Shown here in pieces: positions 37,231 to 63,267 of a stretch of DNA of 64,000 nt. The notes under the pieces were generated by a model, which worked only from the letters and a program-made list of their open reading frames with translations, had not been told where the DNA came from and ran no database searches. The position numbers were made by a program, and so were the translations under genes. Every line of letters begins with the position of its first letter. Position 1 is the first letter of the stretch. The stretch lies in assembly GCA_951406725.2 (NCBI GenBank), contig OX597815.1:186000001-186064000 (forward strand), written 5' to 3'. This DNA is from Octopus vulgaris. Taxonomy: Eukaryota.

Positions 37231-37239
37231 TATATACAT

Positions 37240-37418
37240 GATAGATCGCTAACCACTAAATCTTTATTATTTTCTCTCCTTGTTTATTTCTGTGTTCCTT
37301 TCTGTTGAAGAGCGTAGGCTCGAAACGTAAAAGACTTTATCACTTCCCGAGCGTTAAACTAATATATCTGTTTGTTGTTTACACACCTATCTTCCTCTTT
37401 TGTTTTTAAATTCTCACT
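37240..37418 (+). mobile_element. Family B short element (~180 bp) between (TA)n tracts
   Basis: Homologous to 39190-39391, 45298-45430 and 51152-51311. Confidence 0.85.
37298..37333 (+). ncRNA. Minimal type I hammerhead-like motif, family B (A6U core variant)
   Basis: CUUU CUGUUGA A GAGC-GUAG-GCUC GAAA CG UA AAAG. Confidence 0.62.
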
Positions 37419-37598
37419 ATATATATATATATATCACTGTAATCGTGATTGGAAATAAAAGAAAAATTGTCCGTGACTCTTCCACTTTTTCTCGTCCACT
37501 TTTTAACTTTCTTCTTCTATATCCACTTTTCTCCTTTTGTCGCCACCATTTACACCTACACAGGCATTCACACCCTCTCACAATGCCTGACCTCCAGT

Positions 37599-37801
37599 AT
37601 GTGACCGTGTGTGTATCGTTGGCGATTTTTTTCCTCCGTCTTCCCTTCCTTGAATCTTTTTCCTATGTTTCTGACGAAGAGCTCCGCTCGAAACGTTAAA
37701 TCCTCCCTCTTTCTTTCTTTACCTGAGCGTCCAATAACACTATACTTGTTCCACGTCCTCGCGTTGTTGTGTTTTCTCTTTGTGTTTTAATGTTTGGATT
37801 A

Positions 37802-37807
<6 letters not shown>
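37599..37807 (+). mobile_element. Family A short element
   Basis: Full-length match to the other copies, followed by (TA)n. Confidence 0.85.
37667..37701 (+). ncRNA. Minimal type I hammerhead motif, family A, canonical core
   Basis: GUUU CUGACGA A GAGC-UCC-GCUC GAAA CG UU AAAU; stem III reduced to the palindrome ACGU. Confidence 0.72.
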
Positions 37808-37865
<58 letters not shown>

Positions 37866-38562
37866 CAAGCACACTTACACACACACATGGTATCAATAAC
37901 AGCTTTGATAAATATTTTACCTCCCTTGTCGTTACAACAACTCAACAAAAAGTCGTCCTAATCACGAACTCTAGCTTCAGTAAATACAAATATCACCTTC
38001 ACTTGTTCAAAACTTCCTTTAGTCTTTGGCATTTGAAATCATTGCAGTACATTCAAATAACGATTGGAAATCGAAACACAAAGAATGTCAGGAAAGAAGC
38101 ACAGTGTCAGATAAGTAAAATACATAGATATTTAGATAAGAGGAACAAATTCAAGTGCTTCGAAGCCTCTTTATCTAGAAATTAAATATAATTTGCCACC
38201 CAACCCGTATAAACTTCTTTAAATAAACATGAACTAATTTCAACGTGCTAATAAATGCTCACTTTTCCTCGGGTATTTCAAAAAGGACCATTCCCTTGAT
38301 ATATGACAGCTAACAACCGATTCCAATAAATTACACCACTTACTGGACTAATAATAATTCTGTTTCGGTCCGCTTTGAAGTTCTGCTGTGTAAAGTCGAA
38401 CGAAAAACGAATCAAAAGAAATCGGGTTCCTACGAGTAAGCATTTACTGTTAAACATACAGTTACTTTGATGTTGATATTTTAGCAGCAATCCTACAGAG
38501 CAAATTTTGGAGAAAAAGGTCACATTCAATGCAAAAGTAATGTTCAGTTGTATAAATTTAAT

Positions 38563-38610
<48 letters not shown>

Positions 38611-39130
38611 ACCTATATATATGTATATAACCTGTTCCTTCTAGCGTAAGGTAGTTTTATGATGGACACCTCATAATGTGTTTAAATATACACTGTATTT
38701 TATATGAATAATATATAGTCTATTGACTAATTTTTCTATACGCTAGGCCACTGGTGGTTAAAAAATTTTTTTAATCTTTATTACCCTGATATTATCAATT
38801 ATGTATATAACCTATATAGTAAGCATTAGTTAATTCTACGCAGACTGAAAACATGGTATTCGAACCTTCTCGAGTTCTCATTCAATGTGTCAACATCAAC
38901 GCCACTAATACCACAGAAACAAACAACCAATCTGCTTACTTACCCAACAAACCCGATAGCTATAGAAAACTAGAGCTACCAATTTACGTACCGACAATAT
39001 ATATATATATATATATATATCTATACATATATATACACCCTTTATTATTATATTCATATATATACATATACATATATATATCCATATATATATATATGTG
39101 CGTGTATATAGATATACATACATATATATA

Positions 39131-39189
<59 letters not shown>

Positions 39190-39192
<3 letters not shown>

Positions 39193-39391
39193 AGATCGTT
39201 AGCCCCTACACGCATTTTTTTCTCTCCTTGTTTCTCTCCTGTTTTTTTCTGTGTATCTTTCTGTCAAAGAGCGTAGGCTCGAAACGTAAAAGACTTTTTC
39301 TATTTCTATTCCTGAGCGCTATACTAATACATTTGTTTTTTTGTACTCCACCTGCCTTCGTCTTTTGTTTATTTTCGTAAACATTCCCGTT
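39190..39391 (+). mobile_element. Family B short element (motif at 39257-39292, G8A)
   Basis: CUUU CUGUCAA A GAGC-GUAG-GCUC GAAA CG UA AAAG, with (TA)n on both sides. Confidence 0.85.
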
Positions 39392-39698
39392 ATATATATA
39401 TATGTGTATATGTATGTATGTGTATGTAAATGAAAACTTACTGATAACAAATCTCGGGTTGCGGGGTGTTCAGTTACTCAATAAATGAAAAATGCATTAA
39501 ATATTACAAAACAAACATGTAGGGCATACAAAGAAGGGCCCTAATTCTTTATCAGTTATCGACTCAAAATACTAATACTGAGTTTCGTGTCTTTAACTCT
39601 GAACTTCATATATCGGTGGCACTCGCAAGATTTGTTTAGAATTAGGTCTCGATCAAACAAGACTATACAGGGTGGACGTACGAAAGTAAACAAAAGTA

Positions 39699-39741
<43 letters not shown>

Positions 39742-40210
39742 CACACACATCACAGACGTGCTGTTGGCGATTTATATTTTTTCTGAAAAAAATTAGATTT
39801 ATTACCATTCACTTAGGGACTGGTAACCACTATAAGCTATGGTTTGGAATAGTTCACACGTGTGCTGAGGGTAGCGTACGGATGTAACTGATATTTAGAT
39901 ATAACTGGGGTACTTATGTGTACTCATGACTTTTGCTTCTGCTTTTTTCCATGGGAGCGTGTAAGTATTTCATTTATTTCTTCTCGCATTTTCTACTGAA
40001 GAGGTAAAAATCCATAGGATTAATCATGAAATTGATTCACTATAGAAATAAGGTACTTTAAAAAAAAATTCTGTTGGCTAGCTTCCCCGATTTCAGCACG
40101 ATGTGTATTTATAGTGAGTGTATAATGATATGTGGAATTTGACGATTTAAAGTCTGTTATCAGCATATTGGCATGGAAATAATTTTTCTTTTGCCCTTGT
40201 TTATAAGTTG

Positions 40211-40273
<63 letters not shown>

Positions 40274-40328
40274 GTATATATATATGTGTGTGTGTGAGTG
40301 TGTGTGTGTATGTGTGTATGTATGTATG

Positions 40329-40371
<43 letters not shown>

Positions 40372-40594
40372 TAGCTTAGATGTCACTTCACAGGTTTCAT
40401 TTCCTAGTCTAAAACCAGTTAGTGAGCAACATATTTCTTTGTTGCTTTTATCGTTCTAACCTCTTTTTAGTCATGTGTCCTTTGGTAAAGGCGCAAAGAT
40501 AGAATGCTTTATCTTGACTATTAGGTGCCGTATGTATTACTTCCATTTATTATGTATGTGTGTTATTAGCTTTACTTTCTACTTATATAACGTA

Positions 40595-40915
40595 CGTTCC
40601 TTCGCCTGGATTTTCATGTGCTCCAGTTACCTTTTCGTCTTTCATTGATTTTATTGCCTTTTCTGCTTCTTTTAAGACTCCCTTTCTATAAGCAGCTTTG
40701 AGATTGAGCTTAATCGGTCTATTCTCCTCATTATATATTTCTTTTACGCATTCATCCTTTCTAGATTCTTTCTGGTCGTGATCAAACGGTATGTTTCCAT
40801 TTTTGCCTTTAATGTTACCACTTTGTTCACTTGCGCGTTTGCCGTTTGTGATTTCGCTTATTTTATAATACATGTCTTTATGTTTGATATTAAGTTTTTC
40901 AACTTCTTAGTATTG
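40595..40915 (-). mobile_element. Degraded RTE-like LINE fragment (linker between endonuclease and RT)
   Basis: IKGKNGNI..ECVKEIY..AEKAIKSMKDEKVTGAHENPGE resembles the 'ikdkng..rW.EY..eLy..AIk.mk.gKApGpD.Ip.E' linker. Confidence 0.6.
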
Positions 40916-41460
40916 ATCACCGAAGCATTTGGTATTAGATTTTCTACGTTCAGATGAAGAGCACAGGCTTCGTCAGTGATATCCCACGTGATATATGCAA
41001 TCAGAAAACGGCAAAATTGAAGCGAAAATCAAATGTAGGTTTTAGGTAGAAAGTCATTAGATAAACTGACAACACAGTAACACCGAGAAATGAAACCCTC
41101 GAAAAGTTAACAATGCATTATGTATAGTTCTCCCAATTATATGATGTGAGAATATCGATACTAACAGAATTGTTATCATATAAATTAGTTTGCCATATGG
41201 ATAACGTCTGAAAAAATCATGGACGTAACACAAAACCAATGAAGGATTAAGACAAACATAAAGCAAAATGAGCGGATCAAACTATGTATTACATGGATGG
41301 ATAACATCTATAATTGGATAGTGAAAAGGACGAGAATATATAAGCAGAGCGGCAGGATAACTGGGATTCATGTTATACAGCTAGAAGAAAGAGGAAGAGG
41401 TCAGTTTTTGATTACACACAATTACACTTGACACATATATGCATACATACATGTATATAT

Positions 41461-41511
<51 letters not shown>

Positions 41512-42372
41512 AAGAGAGAGAGACAAAGAGAGAGATAAAAACAGACAGACAGACAGAGACATAGACACACAGAGAGTTGGTTACGCGTATACACATATAA
41601 GCATACGATTATATATATATATATAGATATAGATATATATACATATATATGTACATACACACACATACATATATATATATATGTATATACCGACATGGGT
41701 TAACAAAAGAATACTAAAAAGTGTGTACATAATTTCTTAACGCGACAGCTGTTTCAGGAAGCTCAGAGATATATAATAATCAATGTTTATAATTTGCAGA
41801 TGGAAGGTGTAAGAATTTCTGGTTATGTAACCAATCATATGGAGATACTGCCACTAGTCCCGTCACCTGATGTGTGTACGTGGATGCGTGTGTGTGTATG
41901 CGTGCGTGGTTGTGTATAAGAACTATTCATAGTTACATGTATGCACCAGGATGTATATTTTTGCATCATGCTATCTCTCTAATACTACCCTACACACACA
42001 CACACAGATATATATATATGTGTGTGTGTGTGCGCGCGCGCGCGCGCGTCTCTGTGTGTGTCTGTGTGTAAACAAAATGACCAGCGCCTCTCAGGCTGAA
42101 CAGTAGATATAAATTGTTTTTAATGAATGTATATTTATATGAATAGAAGATTATTAGATTTCTTTTGAAAAATTATGTTTCAGGTATGAAATGAAATCAT
42201 TAACCATTAAAGTTTATAGCTTTTTGGTGTCTAGTAAACTGTACTAAAGTTACTTACCAAGTCTTATAATTAGTGTAAATAACTTACAGCTAATTCAAGT
42301 GAATTCAGTAAGAACATGGCATTAATACGAAAATATTTTCTTCAACTTGTTTCCTCAGCAGAAACAGATATA

Positions 42373-43116
42373 TTGTAATCCACCGACTATCGCGGGTTTT
42401 ACGTTCCAAAACCTCCCACATAAATAATTACAATTTAATGAAATATAAATACTTATCGGCCGCAGAAAAATGCGATATAAATTTATTGGGTTGTCTGGAA
42501 AGTTCGTGCCGCATTTTAAAGGAAAGAAAAAGGTCAATAGATACTTTCCATTACATTTTTAATCAACCATATATGAACCATTTTGTTGCACAATGCATAT
42601 CCATCTTTCCTTTAACTTGAAAATACCCTCTTCCCAGAATTGAGGTGGTTTCATGGCAAAGAATTCATCAAGGTATCTTTTTAAGTCATCCAAGGTATTG
42701 AAATTTTTACCATTAAGACTATATTCTGCAGAGACCTGAATAAGTGGCAATCCGAAGGAGCAATATCTGGTGAATATGGAGGGTGGGGTAACACATGCCA
42801 GCCGAGCTGCAGCAATTTTTGTCTCGTTCCCAAAGCATTAAGTGCCGAAAATGAACTTTCTTATCTTCCATTTTAAAGAGTTACAGAATTAACACATGTT
42901 ATAAGAACATAAATCTCCTTCCACGAAAAGGTAGCTTAAACTGTGCTCTAAATGGAGGTGTAGTTAAATCCTATTTTATGGACTCAACCATGTTCTAAAA
43001 TAAGTCGAAAGGTAAGCTACTATAAATCGGCACGAACTTTCCGGACAACCTAATATATATATTAGCGAGGTACTGAGTGTGCGATAGGTGAACCGCGATA
43101 TGGCGAGAGATTACTG
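42373..43116. mobile_element. Tigger/pogo-like MITE interrupted by the mariner
   Basis: Imperfect TIRs (ttgtaatccaccgactatcgcgg / ccgcgatatggcgagagattactg) with TA on both sides. Confidence 0.65.
42486..43053 (-). mobile_element. Internally deleted mariner element
   Basis: TIRs ttgggttgtctggaaagttcgtgccg / cggcacgaactttccggacaacctaa, TA TSD, and a transposase remnant [47 protein letters not shown]. Confidence 0.92.
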
Positions 43117-43589
43117 TACTGAGGGAAGATAAAATGATCTTTCCAGGAAAGAATATACAATTATTTTTATAACATGCAGAAGCCGAAGTGTCGAAAAGGA
43201 TTTAATATATTCAAAATATTGGAACTACAATACATACAAGCGGTGAGAAAAATATTATGTATAAGATCTGGTATGGGCAGCAGCTTATAGGATAAAATGT
43301 TCTGAACATTGTGATGTCAGTACCTCAGAATAAACAACGGTTTCACTTTTATACCAATAGGGGACGTAAATCTAGACTTATATAAAACTGGCCGTCAGCA
43401 AGATGCAAGCCAATAACTATCAATGCTTACCGCGTACATCTGTTGCCAGGAGTAGAATTCGAGGTATAATTTCGTCTTCTAATGTGGTGCACCATTGTGG
43501 TTTATATTCTCGATGTCATGGGATATATTATTCTGAATTATTTTATATGTCATATCCTATTGCATGTTCGCGTTACTCTATATTATGTG

Positions 43590-43891
43590 ACCGTGACCGA
43601 CCAGGCTATCAGATGTTGCTACACATCGCTGGTCACAATGCGCTTCGCATTTTTTTAGCCTTCAAATGACGCCACCCCGCTGGCTAAGCGAGCAGGCCAA
43701 CAGAAGAATGAGTGAGAGAAAGTGGTGGCGAAAGAGTACGGCAAGGATCGCCACCACCTCCTGCCGGAGCCTCGTGGAGCTTTAGATGTTTTTGCTCAAT
43801 AAACACTCATAACGCCTGGTCTAAGAATCGAAACCACGATCCTACGACCACGACTCCGCTGCTCTAAACGCTGGGCCATTGCGCCTCCACC
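43590..43891 (-). mobile_element. tRNA-derived SINE-C
   Basis: Head gtggaggcgcaatggcccag..ggtttcgattc. A second copy lies at 50820-51123 and a tail fragment at 18660-18775. Confidence 0.88.
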
Positions 43892-43939
43892 TATATTATG
43901 TAGTAGTAGTATTATTGAGCATGCTTGGAGAACCAGCTA

Positions 43940-44058
43940 CAATGGCTGACATTACGCTGACGGAGTTTGGTACGCAAGAGATTCATTAGGATTGTCTTTC
44001 CAGTTTTACCATGAACATCTAGGAAATAAATTCCAACTTCTTGATGCTGAATGCTATA
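43940..44058 (-). pseudogene. Helitron/PIF1-family helicase motif I fragment
   Basis: GIYFLDVHGKTGKTILMNLLRTKLR resembles the Helitron helicase segment 'G.FFLDAPGGTGKTFLINLLLAKIR'. Confidence 0.65.
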
Positions 44059-44059
44059 C

Positions 44060-44418
44060 ACGCCACACACACACACATACACAATACACACTCTACATAC
44101 ATACACACATACACACACACACACACACACATACATATACACACACCGCGCACACGCACACACACACACACCACACACGCAAATTTTTTTAAATCTTTAT
44201 CACTTTATAAATGTTATAACTTTATAACTACATACCACACGCATGCACACACACGCACCCACATACACACACACCACACACACACAGACACACACACACA
44301 CACATACACACTACACACATACACACACACCACACACACACATATACACACACCGCGCACACGCACACACACACACGCAAATTTTTAAAAATCTTTATCA
44401 CTTTACAACTGTTATAAG
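44060..44418. repeat. Two-unit tandem duplication of a CA-rich ~190-bp unit
   Basis: caccgcgcacacgc..cgcaaattttt..aaatctttatcacttta..tgttataa occurs twice. Confidence 0.8.
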
Positions 44419-45297
44419 TTGTCCTATAAATCAGTTGTCCTCGATGTCCATTGTCCTATTTATCAGTTTTCTTATAAAATTTGTGTACATTTACACACAT
44501 AAGAGGTGCCTAGACAGGACACCTAGCATACTAGAAGGACCAGTCAAATCCAAACCACGGTTAAGAGTTATTTCGAACGGAAATAGACTATTTTCTGCAT
44601 GCTAGGCAACTGGTAGAAAAAATTTCTATAATTTTTTCCTACCCTGTATATTTTTCCAATCAGTTGTCTTAGATATCAATTGTCAAGAAATGAGTTGTCT
44701 GACAGAAATTGTCCGGGAATGAATTGTTCTGATATCAGTTGCCCTAGATCCTTCCAGCCGAGCACCTTAATGCCTGCACATATAAAATATGCAGTGTAGT
44801 TCGTTTCCTCTACGTTACAGATATAAATTTACACAGGTTTGAATTTTTAAGAAGAGATTTCTAACAACAACTGCTTTGAAACAACTCATAACCTAAGAGA
44901 TAGCTGAAGCAAAGAAAAGAAGAAAAAATATTAAGCATATTGCAAAAGTAATTTCGTCTTTTCTTCTCTAGTAACAACTTAAACCTTGCATTATCACAGA
45001 TTTAAAGAAACCTGTTAAGATAGCACATCATACAGAAATGACACGAAACCATAAAATTTACTTGCTGATAATACTTACTCTTTTGCTATAGAAACTGAAA
45101 ACGCAAAATTATCCATTCTGATTCCAAGAAGATATCTGGAGAAATAAACATAGTTGAAAATAATAGGTTTTCATGATTAATTGCACATGTGACCCAATTC
45201 TTCATTCTTGCAAATATATTCAGTATATTTCACTACAGCCACCGTTTATATGTGTATATGAGCGTATATATGTAAGATGGTACGATAGGATATATAT

Positions 45298-45430
45298 ATG
45301 GTTGAAATTTACAGAAAAACAAACGACGAAGACAGGTGTATTAGTTTGACGCCGCTCGGGGTCGTAAGAAAATCTTTTACATTTCGAGCCTACGCTCTTC
45401 AACAGAAAGGAACACGATGAATTAAACAGA
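45298..45430 (-). mobile_element. Family B short element (motif at 45374-45409)
   Basis: Sense: CUUU CUGUUGA A GAGC-GUAG-GCUC GAAA UG UA AAAG; the 3' end abuts a short (TA)n. Confidence 0.8.
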
Positions 45431-45814
45431 TAGTATTTTTTAAAAATTGGAGTTAGGGGTCAGTCATGGTGACTGGCTGGACAAAAGTAGTTAGACAGGA
45501 GAGCTAGGAAGAAGGGGAGTATTGGTGATCCCAAAATGAAGGTGCGCGCGCATGTGTATGTGAGAGTGTGTAAGTGTATGCGTGTGGATAGGGGCTGGTG
45601 ACTTTGACGTGTGGATGTGTGTGCGTCTGTAATGTATGGGTGTGTGGATGATGGTGTCGGTGCTGGGAGGTTGTCAGTGCTAGTGTGTGCAGAGTGATGT
45701 AGGGTGGTGTGGGTATGTGAGGGTAGGGGTGGAGTATGTGGGAGTGGGATGTTTGGGGGTGGCGTGTGCATGGAGGGGTTATGAATGAAGGGAGTATGTG
45801 GGTAGGAGAGAAGA

Positions 45815-45905
45815 CAAGCTTAGGATTAATCTTCAAGTTTCCACTCAAATTGGCGCAAAAGGCGAGAGTTAGCCTATCTTTCATAGGCTTGTGAGCTGAC
45901 ATCTT
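45815..45905 (-). pseudogene. Tigger/pogo transposase fragment
   Basis: SAHKPMKDRLTLAFCANLSGNLKINP matches the pogo DDE-domain motif GHKPMKDRLTL.LCANASGD.K.KP. Confidence 0.75.
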
Positions 45906-45919
45906 TTTCGACCAAATCG

Positions 45920-46060
45920 ATCAAATCGACCCCAAGACTTATTCTTTGTAAGCCTAGTACTTATTCTATCAGTCTCTTTTACCGAACCACTAAGTTATGG
46001 GGATGTAAACACACCAACATCAGTTGTCAAGCGATGGTGTGGGGACAAACACAGACAGGC
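45920..46060 (-). mobile_element. SINE-B 3' fragment
   Basis: atcgaccccaagacttattctttgtaagcctagtacttattctatc match. Confidence 0.85.
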
Positions 46061-46063
46061 ATA

Positions 46064-46103
<40 letters not shown>

Positions 46104-46134
46104 AATATATATATACACACATATATAAACATAT

Positions 46135-46194
<60 letters not shown>

Positions 46195-46807
46195 GTGTGC
46201 AGATAGCCTCTTACACCATTTTCGAGAAAAGTTACAAAAATGGTTTGTTTTGTGTTTCCCAGCAAACGAAAAACTATCCATGCAGTAACTGTCTGTTCCA
46301 TGGACAGAGTGAAAAAACATAGGAGATAGATCCTTAGTCGAATATATGATTTGGGAAGTATTTAATTTTTACATTTGGATGAATGCGTATTTAAATTGTG
46401 TTTATGCTCCGTTTTTTTTTTGTCTACTCTACATATACCTGCTCAATGATAAACCACTTATAGCCGTTCATTGATAGGCAGCTGTAACGCTACTACCTCT
46501 TGTTGCAGTTCATGTCGGAATTTTATTTGGAAAAATCAACTTGAGCACTTGTTATGAATAGTTAATACTATTGGGATTAGCTGTGCCTCAGTCAGAGAGG
46601 ATGGCGTAAGGAGGTGTAAGAGATGGGTCGGTCGAAGGACTATCGGAGGGCGAAGAGTTTGCTAGAATAGATTGTCACACTCGAAGGTTCGTAGGTTTCA
46701 ACCAGAAATTTACAGGTATCAGCAGAAGAAGAACCACTAGAAACACCCGAGGAAACATCTAGATGGCACTGGTTGAAAAAGTAATTAGTAAGGGTGAAAA
46801 GAATACC

Positions 46808-47001
46808 TATTTCTTTACAACCTACAAGGGGCTAAACACAGAGAGGACAAACAAGTACAGAAAAACGAATTAAGTCGATTATATCGACTCCGAAAGGATG
46901 AAAGGCAAATTCGACCTCGGCGGAATTTGAACCTAGCGGCAGACGAAATACGGCTACGCATTTCGCCCGGCCTGTTAACGTTTCTGCCAGCTCGCCGCTT
47001 C
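46808..47001 (-). mobile_element. SINE-A with 18-bp target-site duplication
   Basis: aagggtgaaaagaatacc at 46790-46807 and 47002-47019. Confidence 0.9.
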
Positions 47002-48295
47002 AAGGGTGAAAAGAATACCGTTGTGCCACAAGCCTTGGTTAGATCATCCTAAGACGAGTTGCCTGGATAATGGTTTTATATTGTATGACTCGCAACACTC
47101 AGTGACCACAGAAAACATCAACGGTGATATAGGAAGTATTGCATCTGAAGACGTAAGTTGAACCAAACATAGTTCGTAACTTGAGTTACTATGTACTACA
47201 ACTTCGTATTAAGTCGCGTAACTAGGCCTTTCTTACTTTAAGTGTTAAAGCAATATATAAATAATATTCGGATGTTCTAATTTCCTGTTCTTTCTATTCG
47301 TACTGATATTAGTTTGAATATTTAATTTCCATATCAATAAAATTGTCAATAGTGATGCTAATGAGCATAAGCCAGGAAAGATAAATTCAAAAATGCTACC
47401 ATATATAGCGTTAAAATTAGTGATAACATACATGTGCACACGCAGAGATAACGGAGACTTAAATATCTGAATTCATAAAAATGATTTAGCAGCCTGAAAT
47501 AAATAAACAAAAAGATACTAAGGGTTTAGCTTTGCATTCATGATATACCTGATGTATTCATTTATATACAATATATTATCTTCTTATTTGCAAATGTTAT
47601 TTTATAAGCGACGTAGTAAATGGTTTGCGTTTGATGGTTGTGGTTGTGTATAAAAATATATAAAATATGTAAAACCGTTTAAAATATTAATTCAATGAAT
47701 CAACGCTAATAAATGGATATGAATATTTATATTTGTGTTGTCATGAACCACCATATTTAAAATAGATAGGAGTAAATTAAAATAAAAATATTGAAGTTAA
47801 AATAAACTATTGAAGAATCATTTTTCTCAGTAATGTGCGTTTCTTTTTAGAGTATTCTTCCAATCAATGTTATCCTTGATCTTCTGTATTCACATTACGC
47901 AGTAATGAAGCAAGACATGAATGGCTGCCTTATGCTTTAAGGCTTCGAACGTGTGCCATGCGTTAACAAAGCTATTTGGGATACTTGGGGGGAAATGAGG
48001 GACTCGGTAGAGGTTGCCTAAGCAACGCGAATAGATGACAGTTCATTCACTAGGGCGTGTAGCAGCAACTTATTTTGGTATGACACGTTGCTACTGTGAT
48101 AAAATTTCAAGAACATTCGCCCGTTCTTTAACTTACAATTGCACGTAATCAATTGAGTACCGTAGAATAACATTTGATCAACCATTATTCATAACCAGCT
48201 ACACACATGGTTTTAGAGTTTGATATGAAAGAAATAATTGAGTACTGTCATATAAAACTATGATAATATTGATGGCACCTTGGGTAAGTGTCTTC

Positions 48296-48393
<98 letters not shown>

Positions 48394-48445
48394 TGATAAG
48401 GAAAATAAGACAAGGTAGAAAATGCTAAAATAATTTTATCATGTA

Positions 48446-48479
<34 letters not shown>

Positions 48480-48486
48480 CATATAC

Positions 48487-48557
<71 letters not shown>

Positions 48558-49907
48558 CACCTCCAGAAACACACTAAAAGAAAATCGAATCTGAAGTTCC
48601 TTGGTTGTCATCCAATCTTGTGGATATTCCTCTCTAGAGTTTAAAAAAAATTAATAATCCATTTCGAATCTTTTATGCATATTTATCGACCCAGCCATTT
48701 ATCCATTCTATATAAAGTGTTAAAACAAAATAATGTAACAATAGAGGAATGCAAATGCATTTGTATTATTAAAGAATCGTTTGAAGAGCGAAATTGTTTA
48801 CTTGTAAATGCATATCGTCACAAATATCGATATTTTTCATAGTAACCGAACTATCGTTGGTATAGACGAAAGACAAGAGCGATGTCATCTACAAATGTCA
48901 GTAAATAACCATAAACGAATGAGCATATATCAAAGCAATGTTCCAGTGTAGCCTTCACGTGATGGCTGAATCAAACTAAAGAATATGTAACATGCAAATA
49001 AATTCAATAGTAAATCTTTTGTTCTCTGAATTCAATTCCTTTGTCAATCACTGGCTAGGCACATAAGAAAGTATCATATAAAAATACACTTGATAAATAA
49101 AACATCGAATCTCATACTTGCATGAATCCTTTACAACACACTATTATCTGACTTCATTGTGAATTCATTCTGAATTCAATTGAAAGCAAATTATTTTAAT
49201 TTTTCTTAGAATTCAAACACGCAATTAACTGGATGTTTTATTGAGAATGTCAGGAAAATTTCTCCTTCAAAATATTGTTGCATTTCTAATTTATTCGGCT
49301 ACAGTAATAAAACAGAAGCCAGACACTTGATACACAAAGCAAAGGTCGAACAAACAATAAAGATATTAAATATTGAACACGCAGCTATTTTTATTCATCA
49401 CAGTTGAGTGAGTGCGCTAGATATCTTTATATTCTAAACAATCATGCCCCGAAGAGATGTTTCGATTGCTACATCTCTTTTTTCTATTTTTCTTAATGTC
49501 AAATGATATTAATATACTATCAAGACTGGAGCTGTAAACTAAGGTGCAAATCCCAGAGGGCAGAATTCGTGACACGCTCTCAGTTTTACAACAGAAATCC
49601 GCTCTCTACGTCCGTATAGCTAATAACTGAATTGTAACTGTCTGTTCCCTCGTCTGGAAATTCTGTACAGTCAATAAAATGTTTTTATAAGCTACTTTCA
49701 CTTGGCAGTAAAACCTGACGTTGGCCTTAGCTGGAATGAATTTAACGCCTATAATATTTTCCGATTTATGAAAACAAACATATCTCCCGAATAAGGGGCG
49801 ATTGCATTATCGATGGCACCACACAAAGACTAAATTCTGTTCGCTTTCAGTTCAGTTGTAACAATTCCTCTAATTAATTTCACTAATTGCTTAGTCTCGA
49901 CAGTATT

Positions 49908-50132
49908 TATTTCTTTATTGCCCACAGGGGGCTAAACATAGAGGGGACAAACAAGGACAGACAAACGGATTAAGTCGATTACACCGACCCAAGTACTTAT
50001 TTAATCGACCCCGAAAGGATGAAAGGCAAAGTCGACCTCGGCGGAATTTGAACTCAGAACGTAACGGCAGACAAATTACCGCTAAGCATTTATTTCGCCC
50101 GGCATGCTAACGATTCTGCCAGCTCGCCGCTC
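49908..50132 (-). mobile_element. SINE-A with ~16-bp TSD
   Basis: tagtctcg(a/g)cagtatt on both sides. Confidence 0.9.
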
Positions 50133-50319
50133 TAGTCTCGGCAGTATTGCATCCGTCTAAATTTGTAATCTATCGGAATATGGCAGAATGAAGCATTTCG
50201 TAGTATTTTCTAATATAGCAAAATATCATATAATTTGGAGGAAAATTATTAACTTCATGTATATACAAAAATTCTCAAATAGTTACTAATACATTTTTGA
50301 TATAGACAATATTAAGCAC

Positions 50320-50380
<61 letters not shown>

Positions 50381-50724
50381 ACACATGTCAGACATGTTTT
50401 AAAAGTAAACAAACAGAATTACGATTTCATTTAATGGTAATTAAATAACCGCAAATGAAAACTAATTTAAAATCTATAAATTCAGTTAATTATTGTAGAA
50501 AATCATGGATTCATTATTTGTGATAGCGTTTATGCTTTCCTAAATAACCAAGAAAAGTTTGTTCTATTCAAATATATTCTTTTGCCTGAAGGAAGACATA
50601 CAGTAAGAATCTCTGATTTAAGTCGGAGTGAATCAGCGAACACACACACACACACACACACACATACATGTACACTCATGTACGCACACACACTCATGTA
50701 TGTATGTATATATATATATATATA

Positions 50725-50773
<49 letters not shown>

Positions 50774-50819
50774 GTATAAATATATATACCATATATATAT
50801 CCATGTATATATATCAGCG

Positions 50820-51123
50820 TGATCACCGTGACCGGCCAGGCTATCAGATGTAGTTACACATCGCTGGTCACAATGCGTTCGCATTGTTTTAGCCTTCGAA
50901 TGACTCCACCCCGCTGGCTAAGCGAGCAGGCCAACAGAAGAAAGAGTGAGAGAAAGTTGTGGTGAAAGAGTACAGCAGGGATCACCACCCCCTGCCGGAG
51001 CCTCGTGGAGATTTTAGGTGTTTTTGCTCAATAAACACACACAACGCCCGGTCTAGGAATCGAAACCGCGATCCTACGACCGCGAGTCCGCTGCCCTAAC
51101 CACTAGGCCATTGCGCCTCCACG
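50820..51123 (-). mobile_element. SINE-C, full length
   Basis: Matches 43590-43891. Confidence 0.88.
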
Positions 51124-51151
51124 TGTATATATATATATATATTCATATATT

Positions 51152-51311
51152 TATTTTTTTTCTCTCCTTGTTTTTTCTGTGTCCCTTTCTGTAGAAGAGC
51201 GTAGGCTCGAAACGTAAAAGGCCTTTTCTATTCCTGAAGGTTATACTAATACATCTGTTTGTTTTGTACACCAGCTGTCTTCATCTTTTGTTTTTTTTGT
51301 AAACTCTCCCT
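51152..51311 (+). mobile_element. Family B short element (motif at 51184-51221)
   Basis: CCUUU CUGUAGA A GAGC-GUAG-GCUC GAAA CG UA AAAGG, with (TA)n on both sides. Confidence 0.85.
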
Positions 51312-63048: not shown

Positions 63049-63267
63049 CATTATTTACATTATTTACATTGAATGGATATGTGTTCTCAGCTTGTTTGTT
63101 GTTACCACAACGTTTCGGCTGATTTACTCTCCAGCCTTCATCAGGCTGGGTTCAAATTTCTACCAGGACACCTGATGAAAGCTGGAGAGCAAATGAGCCG
63201 AAACGTTGTAATAACAACAAACAAGATGAAGATACATATCCGCCCAATGTAAATAATATAAATAATG
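63049..63267. mobile_element. Fold-back element: two ~97-bp inverted arms, each carrying a hammerhead motif
   Basis: 63049-63146 is the diverged reverse complement of 63171-63267. Each arm reads CUGAUGA A (G/A)GCUG..(C/G)AGCC GAAA CG UU in its own sense. Confidence 0.8.

Follow-up and report, generated by a model that had tools for sequence, protein, structure and literature searches.

Can a hammerhead ribozyme that carries U instead of A at position 6 of its core remain under selection as a folded, and possibly self-cleaving, RNA? Hammerheads leave core positions N7 and H17 free, and position 6 is almost always A. The question is raised by a 64,000-nucleotide stretch of the Octopus vulgaris genome (assembly GCA_951406725.2, contig OX597815.1, positions 186,000,001 to 186,064,000, forward strand; hereafter the window), in which an initial annotation had pointed to four hammerhead-like motifs with U6. 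All four are present with the parts it described: stem I CUUU/AAAG, stem II GAGC-GUAG-GCUC, an A inserted after A9, GAAA and a GUA cleavage triplet. The cores of the motifs at 37298, 39257, 45374 and 51184 read CUGUUGA, CUGUCAA, CUGUUGA and CUGUAGA, respectively, with core C3 at 37302(+), 39261(+), 45405(-) and 51189(+). The register is set by a motif of another family (family A) at 37671, which shares stem II and the extra A with them but keeps A6; the change in the window motifs is thus A6 to U and not a shifted reading. We find that these motifs, termed family B, mark an autonomous Penelope-like element (PLE) lineage that has fixed U at core position 6. Judged from sequence, the evidence favours a constrained, attenuated fold, in which any cleavage would be weak.

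The genome searched comprises 2.8 Gb in about 30 large contigs. A 32-letter pattern that leaves five positions of the core free gave 9,464 exact matches versus 0 for its reversed control, and the motif is not a chance occurrence. Of the 8,767 exact GUA-type copies with G5, G8 and A9 intact, 8,429 carry U at position 6, 100 carry A and 238 carry C or G. The genome-wide consensus is therefore U, not A, and the spread fits mutation after insertion from a U6 source, with transitions exceeding transversions. Another 4,623 copies have a GUU triplet (U6 in 99 of the first 100), and relaxing loop II in the pattern brought the U6 copies to 18,803. In a motif-independent sample of 664 kb, located by the 3' flank, 15 of 20 copies retain the motif, as 13 U6, one A6 and one C6. 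Contigs of uncertain kind from four runs (four organism codes) have variants at N7 and H17, and none is listed at position 6 at a 5% threshold. U6 was found in every subfamily sampled. An A6 subfamily ancestral to family B was considered and rejected: the A6 cluster is a minority in its old subfamily (U6 in 23/30 and 25/30 loci, query included). The nearest neighbours of sampled A6 copies are mostly U6. Two sets of candidate U6 families were also discarded, since those whose stem II is long are rare variants within an A6 family (family C) and those with a changed stem II are mostly double mutants of family B.

The initial annotation had assigned the motif to a retroelement whose amplifying master already had U6, and both proposals are upheld. 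The four motifs lie in the 3' ends, or pseudo-long terminal repeats (pLTRs), of a PLE (Table 1). Relatives of the copy at 45374 share a common 3' end and are progressively truncated at the 5' end; their upstream coding sequence specifies a reverse transcriptase (RT), a CxxC linker and a GIY-YIG endonuclease. A protein search of the genome returned 150 scored matches among 16,514 candidates, some with frames open over 700-1,100 codons. At 20 loci with a long open reading frame (ORF), the 3' pLTR core CUGUUGA is intact in 19 and disrupted in one. Four of these 20 have CUGUUGA in both pLTRs, which are 99.3-99.7% identical in three loci and 96% in the other. Because these young, full-length, open-ORF copies bear U6 in both pLTRs, recently amplifying masters had U6, as the 8,429 of 8,767 exact copies also indicate. 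One locus (L129) is open from the ATG across both domains for 1,069 aa, beyond the stop of its sister copies, with pLTRs 99.6% identical; Pfam recognizes RVT_1 (E 1.3e-7) and a GIY-YIG domain whose E of 0.006 falls short of Pfam's cut-off. The translations show a DKG motif, a CX2-5CxxC linker and CCHH in the endonuclease.

The structure is that of a partial tandem pLTR-ORF-pLTR with 5' truncation and (TA)n targets. The 3' end of the element is fixed about 100 nt past the predicted cut and adjoins (TA)n, the ATG of the ORF lies about 750 nt downstream of the hammerhead, and among 30 young copies, six have 5' ends grouped between -102 and -114. A non-LTR retrozyme was rejected as the carrier, the window copies being dispersed truncated PLE ends and not short non-coding hammerhead tandems.

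Table 1. Hammerhead motifs and the PLE copies that carry them in the window.
Feature	Position	Strand	Remarks
Minimal type I hammerhead motif	37298..37333	+	U6 at 37305; N7 = U; GUA triplet; predicted cut 37329/37330
pLTR-only PLE copy, 5'-truncated	37237..37417	+	(TA)n tracts either side; approximate ends
Hammerhead motif	39257..39292	+	U6 at 39264; C7; G8A, apparently decayed
PLE copy, 5'-truncated	39188..39391	+	Flanked by (TA)n tracts; approximate ends
Hammerhead motif	45374..45409	-	U6 at 45402; U7; C15.2U, apparently decayed
Old-subfamily PLE copy, longer, 5'-truncated (3' UTR and pLTR; UTR, untranslated region)	45300..45814	-	Relatives reach upstream into RT and GIY-YIG coding sequence
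Hammerhead motif	51184..51221	+	U6 at 51192; A7; 5-bp stem I
PLE copy, 5'-truncated	51150..51310	+	(TA)n tracts both sides; approximate ends
Family A hammerhead	37667..37701	+	Canonical A6; stem II as in B; loop UCC; comparison only

Besides family B, the window contains canonical hammerheads of two other families. Family A consists of PLE-type short copies with the architecture and (TA)n targets of family B; it has 2,267 exact copies in the genome, with A6 in 97 of the first 100, and no coding partner was found in 30 loci. Family C, with a longer stem II, has 1,677 exact copies, the first 100 being 97 A6, two C6 and one U6. A third A6 family (stem II GGRC/GYCY) gave 71 matches, most of them A6, and its loop II is variable. 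As these three other families keep A6, A6 is likely ancestral and U6 derived in the family B lineage. An Rfam scan returned no hammerhead match for family B, nor for canonical family A, and is uninformative for both.

Family B is divided into subfamilies that reveal which parts of the motif have been kept. A first clustering of 222 copies, part of them picked by motif patterns, gave 10 clusters in which 43 of 93 flank columns differ and, in the motif, only N7 and H17. The clustering was repeated on 195 of 275 copies, none picked by motif pattern; some copies of this sample came from DNA searches with the motif inside the query, and extraction allowed 4 mismatches in 16 letters. It yielded 7 clusters, between which 43-45 of the 95 flank columns differ but just 2 of the 36 in the motif (Fisher p 3e-6 to 8e-6). 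With the strictest threshold the clusters number 8 and a third motif column also differs (p 1e-4), this one a CpG site within loop II. The first two are N7, with any of U, A, G and C, and H17, with A, U or C. That exactly this pair should change by chance has a probability of 1 in 630 over all column pairs and of 0.03 among 7 permissive columns. G12, A13 and A14, the A15.1-U16.1 pair and the exclusion of G at H17 are all kept in family B, the other core positions match, and the extra base after A9, G10.1-C11.1, the palindromic 15.2-16.2 and stems I and II are all present. G12, G8, C3 and U16.1 are retained even between subfamilies whose flanks diverge by up to about 35%. At the subfamily level H17 is A, U or C, never G; G17 accounts for about 48 among the first 100 of 183 G/C copies, that is, the level of point mutation. 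Because the motif varies only at N7 and H17 while the flanks diverge, the pattern points to selection in the master lineage for a hammerhead-like fold, which is not proof of catalysis.

The initial annotation had further proposed that CpG decay of a single CUGUCGA ancestor lies behind the variation at N7, and this is not supported. N7 is a subfamily trait, with majorities of U, A, G or C, and in the old subfamily U7 occupies 28 of 29 motif rows, with no C7, though other CpG sites there are only partly decayed. Among the window cores, G8A of copy 39257, whose subfamily is C7, alone fits CpG decay. This change and C15.2U of copy 45374, which disrupts the ACGU palindrome, look like CpG-type decay after insertion.

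How such a lineage could keep amplifying may be explained by the position of the motif within the element. Transcripts would either begin some 100-110 nt upstream of the cut or arise by read-through of tandem copies. The element protein would nick (TA)n DNA and set off reverse transcription at a point some 100 nt downstream of the cut, so that the RT would have to pass through an uncut or re-ligated hammerhead. Since reverse transcription would start downstream and have to cross the motif, low cleavage may be affordable or even useful: a slow ribozyme would be cheap or helpful at this step, A6U would be tolerated, and the fold with a residual, conditional cleavage would stay under selection. 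We give an even chance to the reading that the motif is a minimal hammerhead of the PLE pLTR with a lineage-fixed U6, which still folds and cuts weakly, probably needing a dimer and the element protein. A stronger version, which we think unlikely, is that the RT-endonuclease protein or the invariant GUAG loop replaces A6, the U6 core cutting in vivo only inside the retrotransposition complex.

Published hammerheads give some measure of what U6 may cost. Position-6 mutants are reported to be slow (PMC3088659, PMC7151607); an A6C hammerhead has low, ion-dependent activity with kobs <0.1 per min (PMC3088659), largely rescued by Mn2+ (PMC7151607). PLE minimal hammerheads are described as slow even as dimers (PMC4209133), and that of an Anolis PLE cut only with protein (PMC11167929).

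The insertions themselves record little of cleavage. Of 67 copies that span the pLTR-5' UTR junction, 62 keep the whole upstream hammerhead and none starts within 3 nt of the predicted cut; inserted copies derive from uncut or re-ligated RNA. At the cut site, family B has 37 5' junctions (40 rows, 3 indel shifts dropped) versus 3,109 read-through copies. A cut-site footprint suggested by an apparent excess over -10 (14/16 rows) and loop II (12/13 rows) was rejected, because this excess reflects microhomology with (TA)n and a matched TAA control at +38 gave more junctions, 44, a count that has no separate denominator. The family A cut site, with 50 rows (true junctions in 6 of 30 checked, and about 6 of 20 unchecked that look so) versus 1,573, likewise has no footprint. 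The rate of cut-site junctions is about 1% in canonical family A, as in U6 family B. Since the footprint is blank for canonical family A too, this test can neither separate U6 from A6 nor show inactivity.

Several observations weigh against a weakly cutting hammerhead. As just described, 5' ends are not enriched at the cut. No more than two or three independent changes lie behind the lack of a G17 subfamily. The stems show no compensatory change between subfamilies, compensatory pairs being confined to scattered single copies, and loop II is invariant too, beyond catalytic need. Sequence-specific binding could explain much of this conservation. In a pairwise scan of another, 45-nt hammerhead, every single and double mutant of the CUGA region other than a C3-G8 swap has low activity and is unrescued in the data of that study drawn on here, among which no A6U value appears (PMC9901934). 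Finally, short monomers are predicted to favour a rod with U6 paired to A15.1, strongly for U7 and A7.

Much of this would also suit a catalytically dead fold kept solely for recognition or positioning of the RT-endonuclease protein, the main rival, which we regard as possible though doubtful. The missing footprint in family B, the invariant loop II and the low activity of the CUGA-region mutants all speak for it, and a protein-bound three-way junction could likewise leave N7 and H17 free. Catalytic mutants of the Anolis PLE hammerhead did not impair insertion in vitro, and the passages of that report used here record no RNA ends at the cut site (PMC11167929); Naiad PLEs are described as thriving without hammerheads (10.1101/2021.04.23.441226). 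However, G12, G8, C3, U16.1 and the exclusion of G at H17 hold across subfamilies, though A to G would be the easiest change from A17, and the footprint, being equally blank for canonical family A, is no sign of inactivity.

It is decidedly unlikely that the motif has ceased to be a hammerhead and is now either a rod hairpin formed by pairing of U4-G5-U6 with A15.1-C15.2-G16.2 or a promoter element acting in the pLTR at the DNA level. In short windows the predicted P(G5-C15.2) is indeed 0.90 for U6/U7 (n = 32) and 0.75 for U6/A7 (n = 7), versus 0.00-0.12 for natural A6, but the rod probability is at most 0.26 in longer context and weak in the C7 and G7 subfamilies, and a rod leaves the invariant C3 and U16.1 and the free N7 unexplained. 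Predicted stem II probability is 0.86-0.98 in short and 0.12-0.45 in long windows. As for a promoter, the cluster of 5' ends at -102 to -114 would place the motif just downstream of the likely start, but a promoter does not account for N7 and H17 being precisely the columns that change. Full compensation of U6, for example by the GUAG loop or a distal contact, with the RNA alone cutting at normal minimal-hammerhead rates, appears very improbable: all other catalytic positions are strictly conserved, GUAG is invariant in family B versus a variable loop II in the A6 GGRC/GYCY family, and tertiary contacts have been suggested to offset core variants (Perreault et al., PMC3088659), but the 45-nt scan, in the data drawn on here, contains no rescuing second mutation (PMC9901934) and in predictions the double-hammerhead fold lies 10-15 kcal/mol higher than the minimum of the dimer, the A6 family being no better.

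Among known systems, family B is closest to the minimal type I hammerheads of metazoan PLEs (Cervera and De la Pena 2014, PMC4209133), with which it shares the location in the pLTR, a short stem I, the extra base between A9 and 10.1, G10.1-C11.1, the palindromic 15.2-16.2, the absence of helix III and thousands of solo copies. Unlike these, it has the core CUGUNGA; the core variant described in the sections of that paper used here is U3-A8, and no CUGU core occurs in the alignment rows of one of its supplement files. Resembling the PLE minimal hammerhead but failing its A6 feature, the U6 motif is not a canonical member. A natural pyrimidine at position 6 is shared with the A6C hammerhead of phage Bcep176 (PMC3088659; PMC7151607), for which low Mg2+ activity is documented. 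Whereas that case is one phage sequence, with C6, whose cleavage was measured and is favoured by Mn2+, family B has U6, fixed in an amplifying eukaryotic lineage and known from sequence. The PAc Poseidon element of Anolis (PMC11167929) likewise has its hammerhead upstream of an internal RT start, an AT-rich target and copies from uncut RNA; unlike family B, its hammerhead overlaps the ORF start and cleaves, as shown with protein, whereas in family B the ATG lies far downstream and the protein has a CxxC linker. By its domains and motifs, the element is like Neptune/Nematis PLEs (Craig et al., 10.1101/2021.04.23.441226) in its RT, DKG, CX2-5CxxC, C-terminal GIY-YIG with CCHH and (TA)n targets.

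A fixed U6 core is unreported in the parts of the hammerhead, octopus/cephalopod and PLE literature searched, which did not cover Luense et al. 2017, Arkhipova et al. 2017 and one PMC4209133 supplement file; the words 'hammerhead' and 'ribozyme' are absent from the text and supplement of a 2026 octopus repeat annotation (PMC13282606). The novelty of a lineage-fixed U6 core is thus provisional. The role of hammerheads in PLEs is unsettled: nearly all canonical PLEs have them, they cut slowly in vitro, and one assay found that insertion can do without them. Family B is a lineage of at least 18,803 copies, with recent full-length insertions, that bears a normally crippling core change in all subfamilies beside A6 sister families in one genome, and nature thus supplies a comparison. 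Should U6 be dead, what is conserved would be a structural role, with cleavage unneeded. If U6 cuts with protein, the core rule would be broader than search descriptors assume, and such motifs would be missed because descriptors fix CUGA.

Some further arrangements of the element were observed. One locus (L216; G000:C8, ~18.600-18.602 Mb) has five U6 hammerheads in retrozyme-like tandem units of 492-493 nt, 99.6-100% identical, each unit joining the 5' UTR to position -96; shorter versions with 447-507 nt spacing occur at L162, L165, L173 and L203. Such arrays could arise by RT template jumping or from small circles, or could be an assembly artefact. Full-length units stand head-to-tail with ~4.47 kb spacing at G000:C6:117391919-117400891 and C10:7331873-7336352, and are candidate source loci of read-through transcripts. 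At L007:1500-1680 two family B copies are inverted, tail-to-tail, as is typical for PLE insertions. Right after the 3' end of the element at L132 lies a 381-codon open frame on the same strand, apparently of a different PLE.

In the window, family A copies are found at 37667-37701(+), ~26704(-), 26310(+) and 4783(-), two of which show U4C-type decay, and family C forms an inverted pair of canonical hammerheads at 63113-63203. Families A and B have in common CCYGAGCG about 20 nt 3' of the cut (for example at window 37348-37353); it is predicted by folding to pair with the 3' strand of stem II, and a folding switch or protein site is possible. Finally, a small unrelated repeat (L437, L446, L448 and two more loci) contains CUGUUGA with an imperfect stem and a GUG triplet, and is probably not a functional hammerhead.

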